Of a stretch of DNA of 37,695 bases, positions 36,017 through 37,695 are shown one piece after another. A program made the translations under genes and the position numbers. The notes beneath the pieces were generated by a model. The model was given only the letters and a program-made list of their open reading frames with translations. It did no database searches and was not told the origin of the DNA. The stretch comes from a virus (lineage: Duplodnaviria; Heunggongvirae; Uroviricota; Caudoviricetes): IMG/VR virus record IMGVR_UViG_2541047812_000003. One strand, given 5' to 3'. Positions within the stretch are counted from its first letter, which is position 1. Every line of letters starts with the position of its first letter.

Positions 36017-36697
36017 ATGCATCGTATAGACACGAAAACCGCGCAGAAGGATAAGTTCGGCGCGGGTAAGAACGGTTTTACCCGTGGTAACCCCCAGACT
36101 GGCACGCCTGCCACCGATCTGGATGATGACTACTTTGATATGTTGCAGGAAGAACTCTGCAGCGTGGTGGAGGCATCCGGTGCCAGCCTGGAGAAGGCGC
36201 GGCACGACCAGTTGCTTACCGCGCTTCGTGCGCTGCTGTTAAGCCGCAAGAATCCGTTTGGCGATATCAAATCGGATGGCACGGTGAAAACGGCTCTCGA
36301 AAACCTTGGTTTGGGAGAAGCGGCAACGAGGAACGTCGGAACGGATACCGGGCAAGTACCAGATATGAGTAGTTTTACAACGGGGCACTCTGGAGCAGCA
36401 GACTGGCCGAATCCTAAATCTGGATGGAGTAAGGGGCCGGATGGGGTAATTACACAATGGGGTATTTTCGGTTTCCCCGTTGGACAGACAGGGACGAATG
36501 TTGTTTTCCCGCTACCTTTCCCCGCGCGGGTCGAATCAATTACACTGACAATGGCAGATATCCAGGAGTCTCTGCTTTCTCCAACAACCATGCCTGCTTA
36601 TGGAGTTAACTCAACTGGTACTTCAAGAACGGGTTTTACAGCCCGTATGTCAGGTAGCGGTGGGTTTAATCTTTGCTATATAGCGAAAGGGAGATAA
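36017..36697 (+). CDS. tail fiber protein (short e14/Mu-type fiber with a recombination site inside the coding sequence)
   Basis: 226 aa; conserved N-terminal ~95 aa ([47 protein letters not shown]...), then a Gly/Ser/Thr-rich variable C-terminus beginning at the crossover site. Confidence 0.7.
36294..36319. other. Gin/Pin/Hin-family DNA invertase crossover site (gix/pix-like)
   Basis: CTCTCGAAAACC-TT-GGTTTGGGAGAA: two 12-bp imperfect inverted half-sites around a 2-bp core, matching the AAACC..GGTTT architecture of serine-invertase sites; lies at codons ~93-101 of the tail fiber gene. Confidence 0.5.
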
Positions 36698-36701
36698 CAG
36701 A

Positions 36702-37145
36702 ATGAATAAAGTTAAAAGTGTTTACAGCCCTTCCGAAAATGCAATCTACAACGCAGCGCTATACGAAAGTTATATCAAGGAGGGGACATGGCCGCAGGAT
36801 GGTATTGAAATCAGCGATGAGGATGCTGTCAGATTTAATGGGGGAAATAAGCCAACAGGAAAAATGCTGGGAATGGTTTCAGGGGCCCTTGCATGGGTTG
36901 ATGAGCCGCCGCTTTCACCAGAACAGAAAATATCAGATGCAGAAAACATGAAAGCCACATTTCGTGCAAAAGCTGACAGTGAAATATCCTGGCGTCAGGA
37001 TGCTGTTGATGCGGGCATTGCAACTGATGAAGAAACTTCAACTCTCACCCAATGGAAGAAATACCGTGTGCTGCTGATGCGTGTTGATACTTCAACAGCA
37101 CCCGATATTGAATGGCCTACGCCTCCGGCAGTTCAGGCCAGATGA
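36702..37145 (+). CDS. tail fiber assembly protein (Tfa)
   Basis: 147 aa; C-terminal region (ETSTLTQWKKYRVLLMRVDTSTAPDIEWPTPP) typical of Tfa chaperones; 4 bp after the fiber stop. Confidence 0.75.
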   Translation: MNKVKSVYSPSENAIYNAALYESYIKEGTWPQDGIEISDEDAVRFNGGNKPTGKMLGMVSGALAWVDEPPLSPEQKISDAENMKATFRAKADSEISWRQDAVDAGIATDEETSTLTQWKKYRVLLMRVDTSTAPDIEWPTPPAVQAR

Positions 37146-37695
37146 CATCCGGCGCGGTGCTGGTATCTGTTACCGTCACCGCGTCAATGTAATCCAGCAC
37201 GGCGTTAAGTCGGGTTGTTTCTGCCTGCGTCAGCTTCCGCCCGGCCTGTAATTTCAGTTGAATCAGACTGATGGAAGCCATTGCAGCATCAATCAGCGAC
37301 TGGCGCTGTGCTTCTGCCGCGTCTACTGCGGCACTATGCTGTGCCTCAGTATCTGTCACCCATTTCTCACCATCCCATTTATCGTATGGCGTTAACGGGA
37401 CGATAGTGGTTGTATTTTCAGGGTAATCACCCGGAGCTGTGATTTCTTTTGATTCTCCCGTTTCGGTGTTATAGACAACTTCACCGCGATGGTCTGGCAC
37501 ATATTCCCATGAGTTTAAATCTGCCGAACGGCAGATTGCATAACCAGCCTTATGTGTGCCAGGAGCATCTAAACAGGAATATGCAGGGATACCGACACCC
37601 ACAGCAAGATATTCAGTTGATGCAGAAATATACTCCCGTGTCTCACTGTCATAGTTATAAACGGTAATCTCTCCTGCCTTTGTGGCAATAAATTT
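37117..37695 (-). CDS. alternative tail fiber assembly protein (Tfa'), convergent, 5' end beyond window
   Basis: Minus-strand ORF open to the window edge (the in-frame upstream codons KFIATKAGEITVYNYDSETREY... have no stop); C-terminus LNAVLDYIDAVTVTDTSTAPDVIWPELP parallels the plus-strand Tfa; the 3' ends of the two tfa genes overlap. Confidence 0.7.
   Translation of the reverse strand, partial: KFIATKAGEITVYNYDSETREYISASTEYLAVGVGIPAYSCLDAPGTHKAGYAICRSADLNSWEYVPDHRGEVVYNTETGESKEITAPGDYPENTTTIVPLTPYDKWDGEKWVTDTEAQHSAAVDAAEAQRQSLIDAAMASISLIQLKLQAGRKLTQAETTRLNAVLDYIDAVTVTDTSTAPDVIWPELPEA

Follow-up and report, generated by a model that had tools for sequence, protein, structure and literature searches.

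Evidence for a Pin-type invertible tail-fibre segment running past the right edge of an SfV/e14-type Escherichia coli prophage sequence

The prophage and its integration locus

We analysed a stretch of 37,695 nucleotides of viral DNA (IMG/VR record IMGVR_UViG_2541047812_000003), the whole of which is called the window below. The following features were found at its left end:

1-1254: proA, at the start of the window
1369-1444: tRNA-Thr(CGT)
1459-2622, minus strand: integrase

Further genes of the window encode an HK97-type capsid protein, a tape measure and a Mu-like baseplate, and long stretches of the DNA were about 97% identical to SfV and related E. coli phages. The first ORF (417 aa) was considered as icd, the attachment site of e14. 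This assignment was rejected, as the ORF is proA and is followed by tRNA-Thr(CGT) and the integrase, which is the SfV-type thrW site. SfI-type phages are reported to be closely related to e14 and to integrate at thrW beside proA (PMC3636060). We concluded that the window represents an apparently complete SfV/e14-type prophage at proA-thrW.

A crossover site inside the tail-fibre gene

At the right end of the window, we observed a baseplate and tail-fibre region with the following features:

34380-35438, plus strand: Mu gp47-like baseplate J gene (Pfam Baseplate_J, E 2e-51), upstream of the fibre gene
35429-36013, plus strand: Mu gp48/YmfQ-like gene (Phage_Mu_Gp48, E 1e-26), directly upstream of the fibre gene
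36017-36697, plus strand: tail-fibre ORF of 226 aa, which holds the left crossover site
36017-36293, plus strand: constant 5' part of the fibre gene (codons 1-92), outside the proposed invertible segment
36294-36319, plus strand: left crossover site (pix-type), with outer half CTCTCGAAAACC, core TT (36306-36307) and inner half GGTTTGGGAGAA
36306-37695: part of the proposed invertible segment inside the window, which begins at the core dinucleotide and is cut off by the window edge
36320-36697, plus strand: variable fibre C-terminus (Gp53-like_C), in the expressed state, joined to the constant part
36702-37145, plus strand: tfa(+), 147 aa, the cognate chaperone of the expressed cassette (Caudo_TAP, E 7.1e-33)
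37117-37695, minus strand: tfaE-type chaperone gene of the silent cassette (Caudo_TAP, E 2.1e-31)

The original prediction was of a 26-bp site, with the half-site layout of the Gin/Pin/Hin/Cin sites, at about codons 93-101 of the fibre gene. The site was indeed present at these codons (..ALENLGLGE..) and reads CTCTCGAAAACCTTGGTTTGGGAGAA in full, with half-sites that agree at 9 of 12 positions around the 2-bp core. It occurred once in the window against 0.00 copies expected (up to 3 mismatches, 100 shuffles). The loose core AAACCNNGGTTT alone was not significant, with 3 copies in the window against 1.6 expected (up to 1 mismatch). What makes the site meaningful is its identity, at 26 of 26 positions, to the characterised site that e14 of E. 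coli K-12 has within stfP. We also searched the window for further crossover-like sites, which would be a sign of a multi-inversion system, and found none in it.

The constant part, which is presumed to be the part that attaches to the baseplate, was about 97% identical at the DNA level to e14, SfV, SfI and SfII up to the left site. Megablast homology to these four elements stopped at 36320-36326, only 1-7 bases past the site. This agrees with the earlier claim that a conserved N-terminus gives way to a variable C-terminus exactly there. With e14, the DNA homology (96.8%) reached 36326 and restarted only at 37083, from where it continued through tfaE at 91.5%. At the protein level, fibre residues 1-101 were nearly identical to K-12 StfP, while the remainder gave a weak, gapped alignment (56% identity over the whole protein). 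Residues 141-226 matched Gp53-like_C (Pfam PF21882, E 2.2e-10), and for the tfa(+) product, similarity to K-12 TfaP was confined to the C-terminal half (41% identity over 76 aa).

Two convergent tfa genes with overlapping 3' ends, the minus-strand one open to the edge, had also been described for this region. We observed exactly this arrangement. The 3' ends of tfa(+) and tfaE(-) overlap by 29 nt (37117-37145), both products carry a Caudo_TAP domain, and the tfaE frame runs for 192 codons without a stop until the window ends. The window lacks only the first 8 codons of tfaE, which lie beyond its end; the full gene (200 aa) was found in the related contigs L001 and L039. The TfaE encoded in the window was 92% identical to K-12 TfaE.

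The partner site and the invertase gene beyond the window

The partner site and the invertase gene lie outside the window, and their description comes from identical and near-identical records. An exact lookup of the fibre protein led to two contigs (L038 and L039) that showed 0 mismatches to the last 5,679 bases of the window. L038 is scaffold KE700821.1 of assembly GCA_000459015.1. It is probably the source of the window, since a scaffold gap of 10 Ns starts one base after the last base of the window, and the window end is then probably a contig end of that assembly. L039 is ungapped, and after the window end it continues through tfaE(-), a tail-collar C-terminus (-), the partner site and a Resolvase/HTH_7 gene. 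The sites of L039 are at 4278-4303 and 6228-6253, and an offset of +32016 converts these to window numbering. In window-equivalent positions, the continuation holds:

38244-38269, 549 nt past the window end: partner site, inverted, TTCTCCCAAACC-AA-CGTTTATGAAAA (L038, L039)
38324-38878, plus strand, starting 629 nt past the window end: serine recombinase gene, 184 aa, PF00239 and PF02796 (L038, L039)

By identity with L039, the full segment measures 1,950 bp core to core and ends at window-equivalent 38256-38257. The two sites agree at 21 of 26 positions, and their inner halves are perfect inverted repeats. The cores are complementary (TT and AA on the plus strand), as inversion requires. The five positions at which the partner site differs all fall within its outer half and on the base that adjoins the core. 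A search of L001 with the full site at up to 3 mismatches did not find the partner, and it was located (at 8842-8867) by reading the sequence and with the inner half-site. In L001, and likewise in L002, L005-L007, L038 and L039, the partner site was identical at 26 of 26 positions to the e14 site beside pinE.

The invertase of L038 and L039 was 78% identical to Mu Gin and has the same N-terminus (MLIGYVRVSTNDQ), and the corresponding protein of L001 matched Resolvase (E 1e-51) and HTH_7 (E 1e-14). On the minus strand, between tfaE and the partner site, the silent alternative fibre C-terminus has a phage tail-collar domain (L001, L039). Two complete genomes, EC052 and 19SZHZ663Rt (98.9% identical to the window tail), showed the same succession of tfaE (minus strand, 200 aa), a 'phage tail protein' gene (minus strand) and pinE (plus strand). 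The recombinase of EC052 was 97% identical to K-12 PinE.

The original prediction had placed three things beyond the window: an inverted second site, an alternative fibre C-terminus and a serine invertase of about 190 aa. It had proposed to look for the site and the gene in the next 1-2 kb. In the records 100% identical to the window tail, the inverted site was present 549 nt past the end (L038, L039), together with an intact 184-aa Resolvase plus HTH_7 gene (L038, L039) and a C-terminus of the tail-collar type on the minus strand (L039).

Both orientations of the segment

We observed both orientations of the segment among genomes, within a single strain and within L038. None of the three absences that would have spoken against the prediction, of a partner site, of an invertase gene and of evidence for inversion, was seen. 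The chromosome of strain MS 69-1 and a 64-kb record of the same strain share a 14.7-kb region that differs only by the inversion: once one copy (L007) had been inverted between the cores, no difference from the other (L006) was left in 14,739 bp. The EC052 region from the start of the fibre gene to the end of pin, inverted in silico, aligned with strain B1S11 as a single block over 100% of its length, at 99.4% identity. At a coverage of at least 80%, 15 genomes matched the orientation of the window and 6 matched the inverted form. The inversion in silico also created an uninterrupted alternative fibre of 275 aa.

A census of IMG/VR gave 28 contigs that share the last 58 bases of the window exactly, the best of them (L023) being 98% identical; none was the source of the window. 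In all 27 contigs that were long enough, the inner half-site lay exactly 549 nt past the window end. It adjoined pin in 10 of these contigs and was fused to a fibre N-terminus in 8. About half of the IMG/VR contigs appeared at one stage to be without a partner site. This reading was rejected, as on reclassification they proved to hold the segment either flipped or joined to fibres of a different type.

In L038, the 2,991-nt part after the gap was identical, with 0 mismatches, to L039 inverted in silico between the cores. Its order is Sv'(+), tfaE(+), tfa(-), Sv(-), site, pin, so that the two junctions of the scaffold, left and right, are in opposite inversion states. This is most simply explained if both orientations were present in the DNA sequenced for L038, although, in principle, the assembler could also have produced this content by a quirk, without a mixed population. 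If the assembly broke within a segment that was there in both orientations, this would explain why the contig, and with it the window, ends where it does.

Taken literally, the scaffold order of L038 (fibre-Sv-tfa-tfaE(-), gap, Sv'(+)-tfaE(+)-tfa(-)-Sv(-)-site-pin) would mean that the source genome has two physical copies of the segment, one per orientation, in a multi-cassette arrangement similar to Min or p15B. We consider this highly improbable. The two copies are reverse complements of each other without a single mismatch, a scaffold gap separates them and there are no extra crossover sites, while the identical and ungapped L039 has one segment of 1,950 bp. Short-read assemblers often break at such bubbles. 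Even if the duplication were real, the locus would remain an invertible fibre system of the Pin type.

These observations agree with what has been reported for e14. The P segment of e14 inverts at TTGGTTTGGGAGAAGG / CCTTCTCCCAAACCAA through PinE, PinQ and PinR (PMC12529663), and its two orientations coexist in clonal K-12 cultures, as shown by whole-genome sequencing and PCR (PMC4272514).

Single-cassette relatives

The same fibre protein is also found in loci that cannot invert on their own. Of the 24 contigs that were read with the identical fibre protein, 18 have the fibre gene and tfa followed by an integrase, without tfaE, partner site or pin, and the homology of these single-cassette contigs to the window stops about 10 nt after the tfa stop codon. 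In SfV, the constant part and the site are followed by a single cassette, a terminator and the gtr genes; SfIV has an IS element after a truncated tfaE; and strain LR-06 has IS1 in the region. Since 18 of 24 carriers have a single cassette and are unable to invert on their own, the site alone is no proof of an active switch.

Such forms are common, and they raise the question of whether the site in the window could be a leftover, in a segment that no longer inverts here because its partner or invertase was lost or disrupted. We regard this as very unlikely. The window has the convergent tfaE that is absent from the frozen forms, L038 and L039 (0 mismatches to the window) have both the partner site and an intact 184-aa pin, and L038, the probable source, holds both orientations. 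It is for the convergent tfaE, and not for the fibre site alone, that we place the window in the invertible class. Our preferred reading is that an invertible tail-fibre segment of the Pin type lies in this SfV/e14-type E. coli prophage at proA-thrW and that the window covers its left two-thirds; we give this reading a probability of about 0.93.

Proposed mechanism of the switch

The two sites, the invertase gene, the content of the cassettes and natural inversions that are exact from site to site were all observed here, and the switch would build on them as follows. The fibre gene is split by the 26-bp crossover site, with codons 1 to about 97 fixed. Past the core dinucleotide, the segment of about 1.95 kb has two back-to-back cassettes, each consisting of a receptor-binding C-terminus and its own chaperone. 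The 184-aa serine invertase, encoded just outside the far end, would pair the two inverted sites, cut at the matching AA/TT cores, rotate and religate, so that the segment flips. Only the cassette that is co-oriented with the constant part would be translated as a full fibre. In the state found in the window, the Gp53-like C-terminus and the 147-aa Tfa are predicted to be ON, and the tail-collar C-terminus and TfaE to be OFF. The expected outcome would be two virion types that differ in host range.

Several of these steps are drawn from the Gin/Hin/Cin/Pin family. Cleavage at the 2-bp core with rotation of the subunits is how serine recombinases of that family would be expected to act here, and the host-range consequence is likewise anticipated by analogy with it. 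A need for Fis and an enhancer is also probable on the same grounds. In Hin and Gin, the Fis-bound recombinational enhancer acts in cis and is found within the gene for the invertase, in its 5' part; at this locus, an enhancer so placed would be outside the window.

In its components, the locus corresponds to the Gin/Hin/Cin/Pin class, with a 26-bp site, an inverted partner having the same core, an adjacent serine recombinase and both orientations. As in an invertible host-range segment, the constant N-terminus is outside, and two opposed cassettes of C-terminus plus chaperone are inside. The marks of a shufflon are sfx repeats of 19 bp, a tyrosine recombinase (Rci) and a pilV gene with several segments that invert. 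The locus does not fall into this Rci/shufflon class: its sites are of the 26-bp pix type, its recombinase is of the serine resolvase family, and there are only two sites per locus.

Comparison with known systems

The region had been likened to the e14 P segment and the Mu G segment, and we found the gene order to be the same in both. In e14 of K-12, the order jayE-ymfQ-stfP-tfaP-tfaE-stfE'-pinE is that seen here, the 26-bp sites are identical on both sides and the convergent tfa genes overlap by the same 29 nt. The expressed cassette is different, however, with the fibre C-terminus after residue 101 and Tfa diverging from StfP and TfaP. The segment measures 1,950 bp core to core here and 1,827 bp in e14. 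The host elements also differ, since the segment is carried here by a full-length prophage at proA-thrW, whereas e14 is a 15-kb remnant in K-12.

Mu shows the same synteny (gp47-gp48-S(c+v)-U-U'(-)-S'v(-)-gin(+)), and in Mu, as in the C segment/Cin system of P1, the logic is the same, with a constant N-terminus and two alternative C-termini with chaperones. The gix site of Mu (TTCCTGTAAACCGAGGTTTTGGATAA) has the same 12-2-12 layout and shares 18 of 26 positions with the site in the window, but its core dinucleotide is GA in place of the AA found here. The Mu segment is also longer (about 3 kb against about 1.95 kb), and its fibres are of about 500 aa, compared with 226 and about 275 aa here. 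The rest of the phage is SfV-like and unlike Mu, with an HK97-type head and lambdoid early genes.

The serotype-converting Shigella phages SfV, SfI, SfII and SfIV share the tail/baseplate module and the constant part of the fibre including the site (94-97% DNA identity), and they use the same thrW-proA integration locus (PMC3636060). SfV has a single cassette and SfIV an IS-disrupted second cassette, and neither has an invertase. Where the relatives of the window have pin, the Shigella phages have the gtr O-antigen genes.

A possible second output of the switch

The same machinery could also have been selected for a different function, namely defence of the host rather than host range of the phage. 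According to this proposal, inversion would bring a start codon close to pin into frame with the C-terminus that is otherwise silent, and the product would be a truncated StfE2-like fragment that blocks the adsorption of other phages. In K-12, a chimeric StfE2 of e14 with a gp53-like C-terminus is reported to have lowered the adsorption of T2 (PMC12529663), and the cassette expressed in the window is of the Gp53-like_C type. We observed a stub (MMPFARYFCIFINVGLGE, or a variant of it) that continues in frame across the pin-side site in 26 out of 27 instances of a site plus pin; these 27 comprise 24 IMG/VR and GenBank/RefSeq loci and three flipped-state records that recur in the list. The stub was kept even in loci whose Pin is only about 86% identical. 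On the other hand, the prophage is apparently complete, and host-range switching is the established role of such segments in Mu and P1. Moreover, the ATG of the stub is only about 26 nt from the ATG of pin, and the presence of the pin promoter and the crossover site may be enough to explain why the stub is conserved. We therefore think it unlikely that defence is the selected function, and retain the host-range reading.

A related idea is that the switch of this intact prophage may have a second output in addition to the fibre itself. In this form, the conserved 13-codon stub beside pin (MMPFARYFCIFINV-GLGE) would be fused to either fibre C-terminus when that one is 'silent', and the resulting short receptor-binding fragment might shield the lysogen against other phages; by analogy with K-12, we put this forward tentatively and with a low expectation. 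If true, each orientation would set both the host range of the virion and the protection of the host surface, with a Gp53-like cassette unlike that of K-12.

Implications for annotation

The original observation was confirmed and its interpretation supported, and the feature itself is an ordinary one that is already known. Knowledge of the P segment of e14 and of its Pin invertase goes back to the 1980s, and the RefSeq annotation of near-identical genomes already includes pinE, tfaE and the fragments of the fibre gene. Nothing in the locus is new beyond a fibre cassette different from that of K-12. In practical terms, the segment would account for where the contig and the window end. As most carriers of the exact fibre protein are of the single-cassette type, the site should also not be taken by itself as a sign of an active switch when other genomes are read. 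Finally, annotation routinely presents silent cassettes such as the one described here as 'phage tail protein' genes in their own right.

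An in-frame start beside pin

We observed a short in-frame start (beginning MMPFARYFCIFINV..., with variants MMPVSRNRCIFLNV...) next to the invertase gene pin. In the EC052 prophage (L001) it lies on the minus strand at 8868-8895 and runs through the pin-side crossover site into the silent fibre C-terminus, so that the C-terminus joined to it is whichever of the two is silent. L004-L007 and L038-L040 have this start in the same position, as do many IMG/VR loci. It is retained in 26 of the 27 loci, although pin, which diverges from it, begins only about 26 nt away. The fusion of this start and the C-terminus is labelled in RefSeq as either a 'phage tail protein' or a 'gp53-like domain-containing protein'. 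Its K-12 equivalent is StfE2, which was assigned an anti-phage role in a 2025 paper (PMC12529663).

Possible exchange of cassettes at the crossover site

Four of the comparison loci (L010, L024, L033 and L034) carried the same tfaE/tail-collar cassette with an identical inner half-site, 549 nt past the match to the last 58 bases of the window. The outer half of the site was different (GGTATGCGAGAA or GGTATGTGAGAA), and the fibre N-termini joined to the cassette were unrelated to that of the window. In five further loci (L017, L018, L021, L022 and L032), the fibre constant part had only its last 17 aa in common with the window. Together these loci suggest that the cassette is swapped between different phage types via the crossover site.

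In one locus with the identical fibre, L042, the outer half of the pin-side site (5899-5924) differs greatly (TTCTCCCAAACCAACCTTTCAAATAT). The recombinase that goes with this site is 187 aa long, and dinI and a second integrase come next. It represents a different invertase lineage that uses the same inner half-site.

A single-cassette form, with a fibre (226 aa) and a Tfa (147 aa) identical to those of the window, made up 18 of the 24 contigs read. In L036, L037 and L041 (loci 4001-6374) the gene immediately after tfa is an integrase on the minus strand, with host genes (focA-like, mlaA) beyond it, and tfaE, the partner site and pin are all absent from these loci. Homology to the window stops about 10 nt past the tfa stop (window ~37155).

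Integration site and a divergent stretch

The left end of the window carries the following features:

1-1254, proA; window base 1 is the A of its ATG
1369-1444, tRNA-Thr(CGT), downstream of proA
1459-2622, minus strand, tyrosine integrase

Positions 1-2622 are thus the left end of the prophage at thrW-proA, a site it has in common with SfV/SfI-type phages. These genes rule out icd, where e14 sits in K-12.

In an ungapped comparison with the EC052 prophage, which is 98-99% identical elsewhere, we observed complete divergence over ~1.5 kb (29500-31000). The tape-measure gene (28498-30330) ends within this stretch, which also covers an ORF at 30412-30924. The divergence may come from mosaic replacement, or from a shift due to an indel.

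Inversion in assembled genomes

Scaffold KE700821.1 (L038; GCA_000459015.1) has a 10-N gap at 5681-5690, and window position 37695 corresponds to its position 5679, one base before the gap. After the gap, the contig contains nearly the entire invertible segment again, in the opposite orientation and with 0 mismatches. The probable reason for the assembly break is that the culture was heterogeneous for the inversion when it was sequenced.

In strain MS 69-1, a 64-kb record deposited as 'plasmid unnamed3' (L007; NZ_CP146678.1) and the chromosome (L006; NZ_CP146675.1) have at least 14.7 kb in common, and an exact inversion is the sole difference across it. The shared stretch takes in flanks that do not look like phage DNA, with an AraC regulator and integrase fragments. 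Rather than a true plasmid, the 64-kb record looks to be an excised element or a contig for the alternative haplotype.

A similar pair of records (NZ_CP142787.1 and NZ_CP142783.1) was seen in strain SX12.
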